Position numbers and translations under genes: made by a program. Positions 2,741-56,026 of a stretch of 64,000 nucleotides of DNA are shown piece by piece. This DNA is from an uncultured Sulfolobales archaeon. Lineage in GTDB: Archaea; Thermoproteota; Thermoprotei_A; Sulfolobales; NBVN01. How positions within the stretch are numbered: position 1 is the stretch's first letter; each line of letters opens with the position of its first letter. Below the pieces are notes generated by a model. That model did no database searches, was not told where the DNA came from, and saw nothing but the letters and a program-made list of their open reading frames with translations. The DNA lies in assembly GCA_938083005.1 (NCBI GenBank), contig CALKCU010000016.1, forward strand, positions 4,285 to 68,284, read 5' to 3'.

Positions 2741-4084
2741 GTGGTCAACGTAAGGCCCGGTGACTTGGTGAGAGTGCACACCAGAGCGGGTCTCGTCGTC
2801 GAGGGGGTAGTGCTGCCCTCGACCGAGGTCGCCTCCGAGGGACACGTAGTGCTGAAGCTCTCAAACGGCTACAATATTGGTGTCTCCCTAGAGGGAGCGA
2901 CCGTGGAGGTCTTGGCGGAGGGCTACCTGAGGCTAGCCGAGCACGAGGGATCCCAGGGGGTCACAGTAATTAAGGGCGAGGGCGCCCTCAGGATGGCCTT
3001 CGTTAGCACCGGGGGGACCATTACGAGCAGGGTTGAGTACGAAACGGGTGCCGTCAGGCCCGCGCTAAGCGCTGGCGACCTCGTCGAGTTCGCTCCGGAG
3101 CTGCGCGAGCTGTCCGCGGAGCTAGTGGCGGTCGACCTGATGAGGAAGCTGAGCGAGAACATGACGCCGGAGGACTGGTCCCGCATCTCCGAGGAGGTCG
3201 GTAAGCGCCTGAGATCGGGAGCCGACGGAGTGATCGTGGCCCACGGCACGGACACCATGTCCTACACGGCAGCGGCGCTGGCGTTCTCCCTTAGGAGCCT
3301 GGGGAACCCCGTAGTCATGGTTGGTGCTCAGAGGAGCAGTGACAGGCCGAGTACGGACGCTCTCTACAACCTCAGGGCCTGTCCCATCGTGATCAGAGAC
3401 GCCCCGTTCGCCGAGGTGGTCGTGGCCATGCACGGGAGCAGTGACGACCTCTACTCCCTCGTCCACAGGGGCGTCCGGGTCAGGAAGATGCACTCGAGCA
3501 GGAGGGACGCCTTCCAGACGATCAACGACCTGCCCCTGGCGAAGGTCTACGTAAATGAGAGGAGGTTCGAGCTGATCAACAGGAACTACATCCCCAGAAC
3601 CGGGAGCCCCGACGTCCGCGTGATGAGCAGGTTCAGCGACAGAGTAGCCCTCCTCAAGTCCTACCCCGGCTTGGACTGCGGGATCATCGACTACCTGGTG
3701 GACAGGGGGTATAGGGGTATCGTGATCGAGGGCACCGGGCTGGGCCATATCCGTGAGGAGTGCGCGGAGAGCGTTGGGAGGGCTACTGAAGAGGGGGTCG
3801 TCGTGGCCATGGCTACGCAAACGATCTTCGGGAGAGTGAACATGAACGTCTACACGACTGGTCGGAGGCTTCTCAAGGTCGGAGTGGTTCCTGTGGACGA
3901 CATGCTTTCGGAGGTAGCCTTCGTCAAGCTCTCGTGGCTCTGGGGGAACTACCCGAGCGAGGACCCCCGCAGGATAGCCTCCATGCTCGTCACGAACATG
4001 GCTAACGAGATAGGGGGCGCGCAGGGCTTGGAGACCTTCCCGAGGTGGTACCATGGAGATCGACTACAAGAGCCTCGGGCTTAG
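2741..4084 (+). CDS. gatD: Glu-tRNA(Gln) amidotransferase subunit D
   Basis: 447 aa with the asparaginase-type motif VIVAHGTDTMSYTAAALAF. Overlaps the following gatE by 32 nt. Confidence 0.95.
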   Translation: MVNVRPGDLVRVHTRAGLVVEGVVLPSTEVASEGHVVLKLSNGYNIGVSLEGATVEVLAEGYLRLAEHEGSQGVTVIKGEGALRMAFVSTGGTITSRVEYETGAVRPALSAGDLVEFAPELRELSAELVAVDLMRKLSENMTPEDWSRISEEVGKRLRSGADGVIVAHGTDTMSYTAAALAFSLRSLGNPVVMVGAQRSSDRPSTDALYNLRACPIVIRDAPFAEVVVAMHGSSDDLYSLVHRGVRVRKMHSSRRDAFQTINDLPLAKVYVNERRFELINRNYIPRTGSPDVRVMSRFSDRVALLKSYPGLDCGIIDYLVDRGYRGIVIEGTGLGHIREECAESVGRATEEGVVVAMATQTIFGRVNMNVYTTGRRLLKVGVVPVDDMLSEVAFVKLSWLWGNYPSEDPRRIASMLVTNMANEIGGAQGLETFPRWYHGDRLQEPRA

Positions 4085-5966
4085 AGTAGGGCTCGAGGTA
4101 CACCAGCAGCTGAGCACCAAGTCGAAGCTGTTCTGCGGCTGCCCGGCCGAGCTGGCACCCGAGAACGCGGTATACCGTGAGGTAATCCGCAACCTGTGGC
4201 TGGGCAAGTCCGAGCTCGGGGAGCTGGACCCCGCGGCAGCGTACGAGGTCGCTCGGGGTAGGAGGATCGTCTACAGGGCCCCCGAGGGATACGTTTGCCT
4301 GGTCGAGCTGGACGAGGAGCCTCCGCACGACATCAACAAGGAGGCCTTGGCGACAGCTCTGTCCATAGCTAGAGCGCTGAACGCGAAGCCCGTCGACGAG
4401 ATCTACGTGATGAGGAAGATAGTGGTGGACGGATCGAACACCTGCGGGTTCCAGAGGACTGCGATCATAGCCCTCGGCGGCTACGTCGAGGACGAGGAGG
4501 GTACGGTGGGGATCCAGACGATAGCCCTTGAGGAAGACGCGGCCAGAAAGGTGGACGAGGGACCGGGCTTCGTGGTCTATAACCTCGACAGGCTCGGGAT
4601 ACCCCTCATCGAGGTGAGCACAGCACCGGACATCAGGACCCCGGAGCAGGCCCTCAGAGTAGCGTACAGGATAGGGCTCATAATGAGGCTGAGCGGCAAG
4701 GTCAGGAGGGGCATAGGCACGATAAGGCAGGACCTTAATATATCGATAGAGAAGGGGGCTAGGACTGAGGTCAAGGGGGTGGACAAGCTGGAGCTCATCC
4801 CGAAGGTCGTGGCGTACGAGGTGATGAGGCAGCTCTCCCTGCTCGGCATTAAGGACGAGCTCCACAGGAGGGGGCTTAGGCCGGAAGACGTCCCGGACTC
4901 GTTCGTTGACGTAACCGAGGTGCTGAAGGACTGCGAGAGCAGGGTGGTAAGGTCCGGTGTAGAGAAGGGCATGAGAGTCTACGCGCTACCGCTCCCGGGC
5001 TTCAGGGGGATACTGGGTACCGAGGTCTGCCCCGGCAGGAGGTTCGGCACAGAGCTGGCTGACTACGCGAGGGCCTGGGGCGGGGTTAGCGGGATAATCC
5101 ACAGCGACGAGCTCCCGGCGTACGGGATCTCGGAGCGCGACCTGGACTCCATCTACGAGCGCTTAGGCCTCGTCAAGCTCAAGGACGCTTTCATACTGAT
5201 AGTGAGCGATCGCGAGAGGGCCGAGAGGGCCTTCAGCGCTGTCGTGGACAGGCTTAGGTACGCGTTCGTGGGCGTCCCCAGGGAGACCCGGGCCGCGAAC
5301 CCCGACGGCACAACCAGGTACCTAAGGCCGCAGCCGGGTACGGCCAGGATGTACCCGGAGACGGACATACGCCCGATAAGAGTGGACAGCTCCCTGCTAG
5401 AGGAGGTAGAGAGAATCAAGATACCCAAGCCTGAGGAGGTGCTGAGGGTCCTAGTCGAGGAGCACGGCCTTTCGCGGGACCTCGCGGCGCAGCTCATCAG
5501 GGAGCCTGTCCTGGATCTCTACCTGGACCTAGTCGACGATCTGAGGGGGGTCACCAGCCCGCAGATTATCGCTACGACGATTCTCATCCACATGAAGTCT
5601 CTGAAGAGGGAGGGACTAAGCGTCGAGAGGGTCAGGTACGTCGACCTGGCCGGGATCCTGAGAGCCGTAGGTCGAGGGGAGATAGCGAAGGAGGCCGTCC
5701 CGGAGGTGATCAAGGCCGTGGCCTCCGGCTCGAGCCTCGAGGAGGCGCTGAAGCCTTTCAGGACCCTGAGTGTAGAGGAGGTAGAGAGAATAGTCGAGAG
5801 CATAATAGAGTCTAACATCGAGACCATAAGGGCCAGGGGTCCGGAAAGGTCTCTCGGTTTCGTAATGGGGAGAGTCATGTCGGTGGTCAGGGGTAGAGCG
5901 GACGGCGCTATGGTCAACGCCATCGTTAGGAAAAAGCTTCTGAGCCTCTTCCGTGAGCAGGGGTAG
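4053..5966 (+). CDS. gatE: Glu-tRNA(Gln) amidotransferase subunit E
   Basis: 637 aa. N-terminus GLRVGLEVHQQL...KLFCGCP is typical of the GatB/GatE family. Operon partner of gatD. Confidence 0.95.
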   Translation: MEIDYKSLGLRVGLEVHQQLSTKSKLFCGCPAELAPENAVYREVIRNLWLGKSELGELDPAAAYEVARGRRIVYRAPEGYVCLVELDEEPPHDINKEALATALSIARALNAKPVDEIYVMRKIVVDGSNTCGFQRTAIIALGGYVEDEEGTVGIQTIALEEDAARKVDEGPGFVVYNLDRLGIPLIEVSTAPDIRTPEQALRVAYRIGLIMRLSGKVRRGIGTIRQDLNISIEKGARTEVKGVDKLELIPKVVAYEVMRQLSLLGIKDELHRRGLRPEDVPDSFVDVTEVLKDCESRVVRSGVEKGMRVYALPLPGFRGILGTEVCPGRRFGTELADYARAWGGVSGIIHSDELPAYGISERDLDSIYERLGLVKLKDAFILIVSDRERAERAFSAVVDRLRYAFVGVPRETRAANPDGTTRYLRPQPGTARMYPETDIRPIRVDSSLLEEVERIKIPKPEEVLRVLVEEHGLSRDLAAQLIREPVLDLYLDLVDDLRGVTSPQIIATTILIHMKSLKREGLSVERVRYVDLAGILRAVGRGEIAKEAVPEVIKAVASGSSLEEALKPFRTLSVEEVERIVESIIESNIETIRARGPERSLGFVMGRVMSVVRGRADGAMVNAIVRKKLLSLFREQG

Positions 5967-5974
5967 CCTTCAGT

Positions 5975-6604
5975 TCACGCCGCCGGGCCCGCGAGCGCGG
6001 GTAGTACAGGCGCGGGGGTCCCTCCGGCATGGCTAGCGTGGAGAGCCTGCGCGATCCTCTCCACCTCGCTCAGGAACTCTCGCGAGCTGCGGACAACCCT
6101 CAGCAGCCTCCTTACGTGAGTCTTGCTCAAGCCCAGGTCCCTGGAGAGCTTGGAGACGTCCGCAGAGCCCTCGGCGACTAGGGCATACGCTATGGCAGCG
6201 ATGGCGTACTTCGCTCTGTCCGTCCTGGAGCACAGCCTGGGGTACTTCATCATCACCGCGACTATCGCTTCCAGGGCTTTGCTCCTGGGTAGGTAGACTC
6301 TCCTCCTCACTACCTTAACCCTCTTCCCCAGGACCAGGTATCTACCGAAGGAATCGCTGTCGACGTAGAGTGCTGGTCTGTGCTTTATCTCCTTCAGTAT
6401 CTCTAAGTACTTGACCGACGCGTCGGAGATTCTCCCGAAGTTTCTCGCAGCGGTTCTCTCCCTCGGAGACTCCAGCTCGCGCCCGAAGCCTCCTCCGCCG
6501 ACATATATGGAGTCCACGACCGTACCGCACTCCGAGCATACCACCGTACCCCTACTCTCGTCCCAGACCAGGGAGTTTTCGGTTCCGCAGTAGGGACACT
6601 CCAA
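5975..6604 (-). CDS. truncated TFB paralog (TFIIB-type Zn ribbon plus one helical/HTH domain)
   Basis: N-terminus MECPYCGTENSLVWDESRGTVVCSECGTVVD is a TFIIB-type zinc ribbon. Only 209 aa, with one HTH-like segment (VSKLSRDLGLSKTHVRRLLRVV) instead of two cyclin repeats. Confidence 0.75.
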   Translation of the reverse strand: MECPYCGTENSLVWDESRGTVVCSECGTVVDSIYVGGGGFGRELESPRERTAARNFGRISDASVKYLEILKEIKHRPALYVDSDSFGRYLVLGKRVKVVRRRVYLPRSKALEAIVAVMMKYPRLCSRTDRAKYAIAAIAYALVAEGSADVSKLSRDLGLSKTHVRRLLRVVRSSREFLSEVERIAQALHASHAGGTPAPVLPALAGPAA

Positions 6605-20062: not shown

Positions 20063-20136
20063 GCCGCCGTAGCTCAGCCTGGCAGAGCGCCGGCCTTGTA
20101 AGCCGGCGGTCGCGGGTTCGAGTCCCGCCGGCGGCT
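20063..20136 (+). tRNA. tRNA-Thr (anticodon TGT)
   Basis: Hand-folded cloverleaf: acceptor GCCGCCG/CGGCGGC, anticodon arm CCGGC-CTTGTAA-GCCGG, T arm GCGGG-TTCGAGT-CCCGC. 74 nt with no encoded CCA. Confidence 0.9.
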
Positions 20137-33767: not shown

Positions 33768-33947
33768 TTAAGCCGGGTAGTCCTCGGGAACCTTGGCCCT
33801 GAAGTACTTCCCGCTAGGGCTCTTGAACAGACCTATCTTGACTCCCTTCCTACCCTTGGGAGCTAGGGTCCAGACCTTCTCCGGTACCAGCTCTAGCTCC
33901 TGCCCTGTGTGCGGGTCCTTCACCTTAACAGGGGGCTTCTTGCTCAT
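33768..33947 (-). CDS. cren7: chromatin protein Cren7
   Basis: 59-aa ORF below the track cutoff. Hand translation [59 protein letters not shown] is nearly colinear with Sulfolobus Cren7 (from memory). An AT-rich promoter region lies upstream. Confidence 0.9.
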
Positions 33948-34193
33948 TTACTTTTTCACCATCACCGTGCTATCCTCGACGTTATTAAACTTTGCACAAC
34001 TACTTCAGGTAGGAGCTCGGGATCTACATAGAATTTACATCAAAGTTCATCTGAAGCATTATATCAAATAGAAACCGGGGCATACTTGCGTCGAGACCCT
34101 TCCTCCGATAGCGGATTACTTCAGCTGATGAAAAAACTCAAGGCGGTAAGGTAACGTAGTACCGCATCCCCTCTCCACGTTGGTCGCCCGGAG

Positions 34194-35059: not shown

Positions 35060-35145
35060 CCGCTACCCCACCTTTACGAGAGGATTACACTTAAAAGTTT
35101 AAGCCACGGAATATACGATAGACAGCCCAGCGGAGATGGTAAGGG

Positions 35146-40637: not shown

Positions 40638-40994
40638 GAAGAGGGCGGTGGCCGGAGCCGGCTGGTAGCTACGGGGAACTGGGGAAACACCGCCCTCCAC
40701 ACGGCACGGAGGCTCCGCAAGGAGCGCGGGGAGACCCGCGGCGACGGCACAGAAACGGCACGGCCACTCCCGGGTGTCCGTGAGGCGGCGAGGGCGCTCC
40801 GGCGACGGAGCGTCAGCAACCCGCTGAGTATGGGAGTGGATGCGCTGAAACGGCCGCCCCTCCGGGAGCAAGGCCGAGCAGCACCGATGAGTCGCCGTGT
40901 GAGGTGCGGGTAGGCCGCATAGTCCAATGCTACCGCAGTACAGAAGGCGGGTTATAGCCGGCACCGGCCACCGAGTCCGCGCTCCGCCTCTTCC
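40638..40994 (+). ncRNA. rnpB: RNase P RNA (archaeal type), approximate ends
   Basis: CR-I-like GGGGAAACACCGCCC (40681-40695) and CR-V-like ACAGAAGGCGGGTTAT (40940-40955). 10-bp terminal helix 40646-40655/40964-40973 plus outer 7-bp 40638-40644/40987-40993. TATA box ctatttagg at 40616-40624. The track ORFs here are Arg/Pro-rich junk. Confidence 0.6.
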
Positions 40995-54847: not shown

Positions 54848-55693
54848 GTGGGCCGGCAGAGCTTCGGTACGAGCGACGCCCTAAGCGAGAGGGTCCGGGA
54901 GGTCCTCAAGCGCATTAAGTACAAGGTCGCGGTGGTAAGCGGGAAGGGGGGTGTGGGGAAGTCCCTGGTCTCCTCCTACACCGCCGTGGCTCTCGCGAGG
55001 AGGGGTCTCAGGGTCGGTCTACTGGACGTAGACTTCCACGGACCCTCCTCCCACATCTTCCTGGGCCTCAGGAACGCGCGGCCTAGAGCGACCCTCGAGT
55101 GGATAGAGCCCGTCGAGGGCCCCCTCGGGATAAGGGTGATGTCCGTAGCCTTCCTGACTCCGGAGGAGGACACCCCGGTGATATGGCGGGGACCCCTGAA
55201 GTCCTCGGCGATAGTGGAGCTGCTGACCAAGGTGAACTGGGGAGACCTGGACTTCATGATCGTGGACCTGCCCCCGGGAACCGGGGACGAGGCCCTGACG
55301 CTGGCGCAGGTGGTGAGAGACGTGGACGGCTCCATAGTCGTAGCGATGCCTTCCACCGTGGTCAAGAGCGTAGTGTCTAGGGCCATAAACTTCGTGAAGT
55401 ACGTGGGTTTGAGACCCATAGGGCTTGTCGAGAACATGAGCTTCTTCTACTGCCCCGACAGCGGCCGCAGGTACGAGATCTTCGGCGAGTCCGCGGTCGA
55501 GGAGCTCTCGGCGAAGTACGGGATACCCGTGATAGCTAGGATCCCGGTGGACCCCCGGCTCTCGGAGTACGTGGAGACCGGGAGGGTACTGATACTCGAG
55601 GAGCCCGACTCCCCACTGTCGAGGTCGTTCGAGGAGATAGCGAGTAGGCTGTTAGCCGAGCTGGAGAGGGTCCAGTCGGGAGCCGGACGCTAG
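54848..55693 (+). CDS. Mrp/NBP35-family Fe-S cluster carrier ATPase
   Basis: KVAVVSGKGGVGKS deviant Walker A, DLPPGTGDE and a CP motif (FYCPDSG). Confidence 0.9.
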   Translation: MGRQSFGTSDALSERVREVLKRIKYKVAVVSGKGGVGKSLVSSYTAVALARRGLRVGLLDVDFHGPSSHIFLGLRNARPRATLEWIEPVEGPLGIRVMSVAFLTPEEDTPVIWRGPLKSSAIVELLTKVNWGDLDFMIVDLPPGTGDEALTLAQVVRDVDGSIVVAMPSTVVKSVVSRAINFVKYVGLRPIGLVENMSFFYCPDSGRRYEIFGESAVEELSAKYGIPVIARIPVDPRLSEYVETGRVLILEEPDSPLSRSFEEIASRLLAELERVQSGAGR

Positions 55694-55798
55694 GACCTCG
55701 CGGAGCTCGCTGTTAGCACGTAGGCAGCTACACGAGGTCTACCCCTCAGTTTCCTGTCCATCCCACTCTCCTCCCACCAGAGCAAGCCTTCGACCCAG

Positions 55799-55820
55799 AC
55801 CCCTCTATTTCCAGTGCAGA
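55799..55820 (-). promoter_or_regulatory. ORB-like (Orc1/Cdc6 origin recognition box-like) element
   Basis: Minus strand reads TCTGCACTGGAAATAGAGGGGT (xxCAnnGGAAA-N4-GGGGT). Inverted relative to the element at 56005-56026. Confidence 0.45.
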
Positions 55821-56004
55821 TGAGCGGGCCCTAGTAGGGTGGGGCAACTGCGCTCCCTAAACTCTAGGTTAGAGCTTTTGGGCTAGAAACTATGAAGAGA
55901 TAGAAAATTCTTTATACAAACCTTTTTTAACAATAGTCTCTCTAAAGGAAATGAGACTTTTTAGTATTGTTGAGGAAACTTTCGCAGCAGTAGGGGTCCA
56001 CCCA

Positions 56005-56026
56005 TGTCCAGCGGAAAAGGTGGGGT
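56005..56026 (+). promoter_or_regulatory. ORB-like (Orc1/Cdc6 origin recognition box-like) element
   Basis: TGTCCAGCGGAAAAGGTGGGGT fits TCCA-NN-GGAAA-N4-GGGGT. Lies on the other side of the AT-rich stretch at 55861-55980. Confidence 0.45.

Follow-up and report, generated by a model that had tools for sequence, protein, structure and literature searches.

A probable oriC1-type replication origin between convergent mrp and mazG-like genes of an uncultured hot-spring crenarchaeon

The oriC1 of Aeropyrum pernix K1 has reportedly been studied by Grainge et al. 2006, Robinson & Bell 2007 and Gaudier et al. 2007, and the Orc1-1 dependent oriC1 of Sulfolobus/Saccharolobus by Robinson et al. 2004, Samson et al. 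2013 and Dhanaraju et al. 2025. A. pernix Ori1 (NC_000854 444,909-445,231) contains four ORBs, and the AT-rich region between ORB2 and ORB3 becomes nuclease-sensitive when Orc1-1 binds (PMC8287685). The printed sequence has the order ORB1(+), ORB2(-), AT-rich region, ORB3(+), ORB4(+) (PMC8287685). Marker-frequency analysis shows that the two origins of A. pernix are both active (PMC10769869), and neither of the cdc6 genes adjoins them (PMC5333045). At S. islandicus oriC1, a ucm motif is positioned midway between ORB2 and ORB3 and is needed for firing; the motif is bound by the nucleoid protein UBP, which contacts MCM (PMC12141716). At euryarchaeal origins (Pyrococcus oriC and haloarchaeal oriC1), an AT-rich region lies between ORB repeats whose core is of the same family, as at the locus described here. 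Euryarchaeal oriC has many ORB or mini-ORB copies, with longer ORBs or halophile-specific extended G-strings, and cdc6 is tightly linked. To our knowledge, ucm has not been described for euryarchaeal oriC.

Here, we describe an intergenic spacer in a 64-kb stretch of DNA, the whole of which is referred to below as the window. Judged from its sequence, the spacer is very probably an oriC1-type (Orc1-1/ORB/ucm) chromosomal replication origin of an uncultured hot-spring crenarchaeon.

ORB-like boxes, AT-rich core and ucm motif

The spacer separates a gene encoding a Mrp/NBP35-family ATPase from one encoding a small MazG-like protein. This gap had been put at 360 nt; it is real and measures 361 nt between the stop of Mrp (55693) and that of the MazG-like ORF (56055). 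The elements of the spacer, and the genes on either side, are as follows.

54848-55693, plus strand: left neighbour, Mrp/NBP35-family ATPase, with Pfam ParA/CbiA/MipZ domains on homologues; context, not part of the origin
55741-55762, minus strand: ORB-like box A (outer left), GATGGACAGGAAACTGAGGGGT; exact GGAAA-N4-GGGGT; PWM score 17.7 bits
55761-55777, plus strand: direct repeat TCCCAC-N5-TCCCAC, abutting box A on the core-proximal side
55799-55820, minus strand: ORB-like box B (inner left), TCTGCACTGGAAATAGAGGGGT; exact match; PWM score 28.6 bits
55821-56004, no strand: AT-rich region between the inner boxes, a putative duplex-unwinding element (DUE); most AT-rich part at about 55858-55983
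55911-55921, plus strand: ucm motif, TTTATACAAAC; match to published Sulfolobus oriC1 ucm oligonucleotides
56005-56026, plus strand: ORB-like box C (inner right), TGTCCAGCGGAAAAGGTGGGGT, with a GT extension to 56028; PWM score 25.2 bits
56051-56072, minus strand: ORB-like box D (outer right), ACTCCATGCGAAAAGTAGGGGT; one mismatch to GGAAA-N4-GGGGT; PWM score 20.8 bits
56055-56342, minus strand: right neighbour, small MazG-like protein of ~95 aa from an internal ATG; Pfam MazG, E = 3e-13

The original prediction placed two inverted 22-nt elements, read as ORBs, at 55820-55799 on the minus strand and 56005-56026 on the plus strand. Both are present at these positions, where they form boxes B and C, and both contain GGAAA-N4-GGGGT. 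They are identical at 15/22 positions, rather than the 14/22 proposed, and the addition of boxes A and D brings the number of boxes to four. The layout is A(-) B(-), AT-rich core, C(+) D(-). The G-strings of boxes B and C are both distal to the core and so point away from it, as anticipated, and as they do in the sequences published for A. pernix Ori1 and S. solfataricus oriC1. An archaeal oriC1-type origin is marked by at least two ORB elements, with a TCCA..GGAAA core and a GGGGT G-string, and such elements are found here.

Occurrence of the motif at many random positions was named at the outset as grounds for doubt. Within the 64-kb window, the three exact matches to GGAAA-N4-GGGGT (0.13 expected) all fall in the spacer, and none of 100 shuffles reached three matches. 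We also trained an ORB PWM on relatives alone, with the window excluded. The four spacer boxes are among the five best PWM hits in the window (17.7-28.6 bits), where shuffled sequences lead us to expect 0.1 hits, and this upholds the reading of the elements as ORBs. The fifth-best PWM hit (35065-35084, 18.5 bits) was rejected as an ORB because it consists of the Shine-Dalgarno-like sequence AGGTGGGGT and a TATA region directly 5' of a small gene. That gene, on the minus strand, encodes a small zinc-ribbon, L40e-like protein. An exact search of genome representatives with box C and its flank returned no match.

Box D extends over the end of the mazG-like ORF, where it covers the stop codon and the final codons. 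This ORF continues through box D in the window and in L011, the closest relative, and gains about nine C-terminal residues as a result. Conversely, in relatives with 43% GC the gene is called as stopping before box D.

The core was predicted to be the most AT-rich stretch of the window, and it is the global AT maximum at 60, 100, 120 and 150 nt. Its AT content reaches 73% over 100 nt (55884-55983), compared with 38.6% (sd 5.1) for the window on average. No 100-bp duplex in the window is less stable: the core has -113.7 kcal/mol and the mean is -151.9 kcal/mol (sd 6.4). The inner ORB pair is inverted, has its G-strings distal and brackets an AT-rich element, an arrangement characteristic of oriC1-type origins. 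The second most AT-rich stretch of the window, at 33935-34141, reaches 65% AT over 100 nt and is intergenic between minus-strand genes. It contains neither an ORB nor ucm and was rejected as an origin-like region, being an ordinary promoter-bearing spacer.

The motif TTTATACAAAC agrees with ATTATACAAAAG and ATTATACAAACT, the ucm sequences given for oligonucleotides of Sulfolobus oriC1 (PMC12141716). Its 9-nt core, TTATACAAA, occurs once in the 64-kb window (0.01 expected). The motif is separated from boxes B and C by ~90 nt and ~83 nt, respectively. The location of ucm within the DUE is a feature of crenarchaeal origins. By analogy, the motif is the presumed binding site for a UBP-like nucleoid protein. 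It also contains the TATA-like sequence TTTATA and, given this, a promoter inside the AT-rich core is possible.

When flipped, the locus has the layout of A. pernix oriC1: (-)(-)DUE(+)(-) becomes (+)(-)DUE(+)(+), so that box D corresponds to ORB1, box C to ORB2, box B to ORB3 and box A to ORB4. The GGGGTGT extension is common to box C and the inner ORBs of A. pernix, and a ucm-like sequence, ATGATACAAAA, is found in the A. pernix Ori1 core just as ucm is found in the core here. The two loci are also alike in size (about 323 bp in A. pernix and about 332 bp in the window). Their AT-rich core sequences are unrelated; hence, the window is not derived from A. pernix itself. Further differences concern the distance that separates the G-strings in the convergent pair of boxes (24 nt in the window and roughly 55 nt in A. 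pernix, the latter taken from a lossy OCR sequence), the orientation of ucm relative to the asymmetric box pattern, which is opposite in the two loci, and the TCCCAC-N5-TCCCAC repeat beside the outer box, which is not visible in the A. pernix Ori1 sequence. The genes that flank A. pernix oriC1 are not given in the reviews or in the Ori-Finder 2 paper.

Sulfolobus oriC1 resembles the locus in its AT-rich DUE, which has ucm midway and is enclosed by two inverted ORBs whose G-strings are distal. The ORB core, TCCA-N2-GGAAA-N4-GGGGT, is common to both. Conversely, Sulfolobus oriC1 has three ORBs and directly adjoins orc1-1, whereas the window has four boxes and no orc1 was found. With ucm as a third origin element, and a box layout like that of A. 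pernix, the initial reading of the spacer as a candidate origin is both supported and extended.

In an exact search with A. pernix ORB4, a Thermoplasmata MAG, L010, was the only match, and no record from Aeropyrum was found. At 5255-5549 of this locus (CAZXWO010000018.1), three ORB-like boxes, one of which is identical to the A. pernix ORB4 core, are found between thiC and a gyrB-like ORF, beside the AT maximum of the locus. We rejected L010 as a positive control since the ORF beside the ORB cluster encodes ThiC, not Orc1. The cluster may be another origin without an adjacent orc1.

Conservation in relatives and the TCCCAC repeat

The closest homologues of the window's Mrp are from uncultured hot-spring MAGs, labelled 'Sulfolobales archaeon' by NCBI. 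The syntenic order in these relatives is PK, hypothetical, Mrp, spacer, MazG, Sec61-beta, POR. We compared the spacers of seven distinct syntenic lineages, with genomes of 43-64% GC. Boxes A, B and C have the same orientations in 7/7 lineages. Box D is present in 5/7 and was not detected in L094 or L099. Boxes A and B are spaced by 55-58 nt except in the most divergent lineage, where the distance is 69 nt, and the spacing between boxes C and D is constant, at 44 nt, in the five lineages that carry box D. In all seven lineages, ucm is located between boxes B and C. The cores of the relatives are 136-237 nt long and 52-78% AT; ucm excepted, the core sequence is poorly conserved.

In the seven-lineage alignment, 52/110 columns inside the elements are invariant, compared with 5/261 outside (odds ratio 46, p = 1e-26). 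Invariant columns number 9/20 for box A, 10/20 for box B and 14/22 for box C, and box B is identical in L011. Conservation of the elements in related genomes, a further mark of an oriC1-type origin, is therefore observed.

The genomes that share the synteny are of two composition classes: 61-64% GC (the window and L011) and 43-44% GC (L092, L094, L096, L098 and L101). Mrp from these synteny-sharing genomes is about 57-67% identical to that of the window. Base composition has thus shifted considerably inside a single lineage. L011 has an extra GC-rich insert of ~190 nt (5853-6040) between the Mrp stop and box A. The insert contains hairpin-forming repeats, e.g. CCCCGAAGG...CCTTCGGGG, and is not present in the window.

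Locus scans based on Mrp gave 80 unrelated Mrp loci with an alignment query and only distant Mrp genes with a single-protein query. A metagenome scan with a composite pattern, comprising box A and the TCCCAC repeat, identified five more divergent lineages (L104-L108) with an ORB cluster and two TCCCAC copies. The ucm core is present in 4/5 of these; the exception is L104, a 2.2-kb fragment. The flanking genes are Mrp and MazG in L108, TiaS and MazG in L105 and L107, and a hypothetical gene and aldehyde:ferredoxin oxidoreductase (AFOR) in L106. The neighbours change and the parts persist. Hence, the element set behaves as a self-contained module rather than as a regulatory region that belongs to one gene.

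The TCCCAC-N5-TCCCAC repeat has a single occurrence in the window (0.03 expected) and a periodicity of 11 bp. It is joined to an ORB in every lineage, and across the seven aligned lineages 10/17 of its columns are invariant. The divergent metagenomic loci L104-L108 also show the repeat beside an ORB. In L106 the ORB and both TCCCAC copies form 37-nt perfect inverted copies (2996-3032 and 3412-3448), so that the arrangement is symmetric and the copies flank an AT-rich, ucm-bearing core. It is conceivable, though on balance doubtful, that the ORB-fused repeat binds an extra uncharacterised origin factor, or a second Orc1 protomer, and so defines a lineage-specific variant of oriC1.

Gene context of the spacer

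MazG is the most consistent neighbour of the module, being found in the window, L011, L092-L101, L105, L107 and L108 but not in L106. The genes on either side of the spacer were said to converge. This is correct, and the convergence is wider than first described. To the left, ~72% of coding bases are on the plus strand and to the right 11/11 ORFs are on the minus strand, in each case towards the spacer. The switch in orientation occurs at about 55.7-56.0 kb, and transcription converges on the spacer over many kb. Consequently, departing forks would meet most nearby transcription head-on. Such a context is unusual for an origin. The cumulative GC-skew and purine-skew (RY) maxima, at 55724 and 55737, are within the spacer. 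A skew analysis had been proposed as a check on the origin; inside the window, the switch in gene orientation explains the maxima, and we set them aside as origin evidence for this reason.

As the original prediction noted, there is no orc1/cdc6 gene in the window; none was found among P-loop ORFs of at least 200 aa, with 55 kb covered on one side and 8 kb on the other. Similarly, no Cdc6 domains were found in the flanks of the relatives' loci. An adjacent orc1/cdc6 gene, which is typical but not universal for oriC1, is thus not observed here. We do not count this against an origin because A. pernix oriC1 likewise is not adjacent to such a gene. Hence, orc1/cdc6 adjacency does not define the oriC1 family in this clade. 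The initiator at this locus is assumed to be Orc1.

Elsewhere, the window encodes an archaeal RNase P RNA at 40653-40966 (185 bits) and seven tRNAs (at 20063, 33521, 41049, 44138, 47913, 48075 and 61511). Three of the tRNA genes are longer than 71 nt (123, 90 and 85 nt), consistent with introns.

Alternative explanations and significance

The elements might form an Orc1-binding cluster that does not fire. Such a cluster could be an origin that is dormant or a relic, or else a site bound by Orc1/UBP that has an architectural or regulatory role between convergent transcription units. The many kb of transcription directed at the spacer would suit such a site, UBP binds hundreds of non-origin sites (PMC12141716) and haloarchaea are known to have dormant origins that bear ORBs (PMC4595724). 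We nevertheless consider this unlikely. The full element set, with the DUE at the stability minimum and a central ucm, is under strong selection in genomes of 43% to 64% GC, and has persisted although the flanking genes changed. A relic would decay, and a regulatory site tied to one gene would neither keep a DUE nor change contexts. Even less probable is an ordinary AT-rich intergenic region, with promoters, terminators or a small ncRNA, in which the resemblance to ORBs and ucm is coincidental. The spacer does lie where two convergent genes end and where their transcription has to stop, and the TTTATA within ucm is TATA-like. However, three exact ORB cores (0.13 expected) and a unique ucm (0.01 expected) are found in one 290-nt stretch, and the conserved columns correspond to the boxes rather than to a contiguous RNA-like block. 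A scan for promoters and terminators of the bacterial type, which is of little relevance to archaea, found nothing, including no terminator-like hairpin.

A discrete ncRNA in the AT-rich stretch was another outcome that the original prediction said would tell against an origin. The Rfam search of the spacer gave no match even at E <= 1, which counts against an ncRNA, and folding of the core on both strands did not differ significantly from shuffled sequences (z-scores of -1.42 and -1.18). Hence, neither a known RNA family nor an unusually stable conserved fold was found. The inverted repeats that flank an AT-rich core, and above all the 37-nt perfect inverted copies that form the terminal repeats in L106, could also recall a mobile-element remnant (a MITE or an integration scar) with terminal inverted repeats that resemble ORBs by chance. 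This explanation is highly improbable. Only one copy of the element is present in the window and in each of the 8-15 kb loci that we examined, and it holds a fixed syntenic position in at least seven lineages; the multiple dispersed copies or variable presence typical of MITEs were not seen. Furthermore, the interior diverges while the ends are conserved, and no transposase is nearby in the loci examined.

We therefore favour an oriC1-type origin, on the grounds that its DNA elements are present, statistically specific, suitably arranged and conserved in evolution. For this locus, the binding of proteins, the unwinding of DNA and firing are inferred from the origins of Aeropyrum and Sulfolobus. 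By analogy with these, Orc1-1 initiator molecules would bind the four ORB boxes with defined polarity, and the inverted inner pair, B and C, would bracket the AT-rich region. ATP-bound Orc1-1 would recruit the MCM helicase to this region, where the DNA would be distorted and opened. A UBP-like nucleoid protein on the central ucm may help MCM to become active and leave, and replication would then be bidirectional. Higher-order Orc1 assembly could be aided by the two outer boxes, A and D, and possibly also by the TCCCAC repeat.

The origin type is well known, and only three features exceed the textbook picture: the TCCCAC repeat, the link to MazG and the convergence of transcription. Replication specialists may find interest in the lack of orc1 linkage, the convergent head-on transcription and the extra repeat, none of which overturns current understanding. 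If the repeat does define a variant of oriC1, it would be one that is never linked to orc1, usually has a small mazG beside it and is sited where transcription meets departing forks head-on. For an uncultured thermophilic crenarchaeal lineage, the origin can be annotated with confidence at the level of sequence. The architecture of four ORBs and ucm, hitherto characterised in Aeropyrum, would thereby extend to a dozen genomes of very different base composition. Within it, ucm, recently shown to be essential in Sulfolobus, is the sole conserved point in an unwinding region that otherwise drifts freely.
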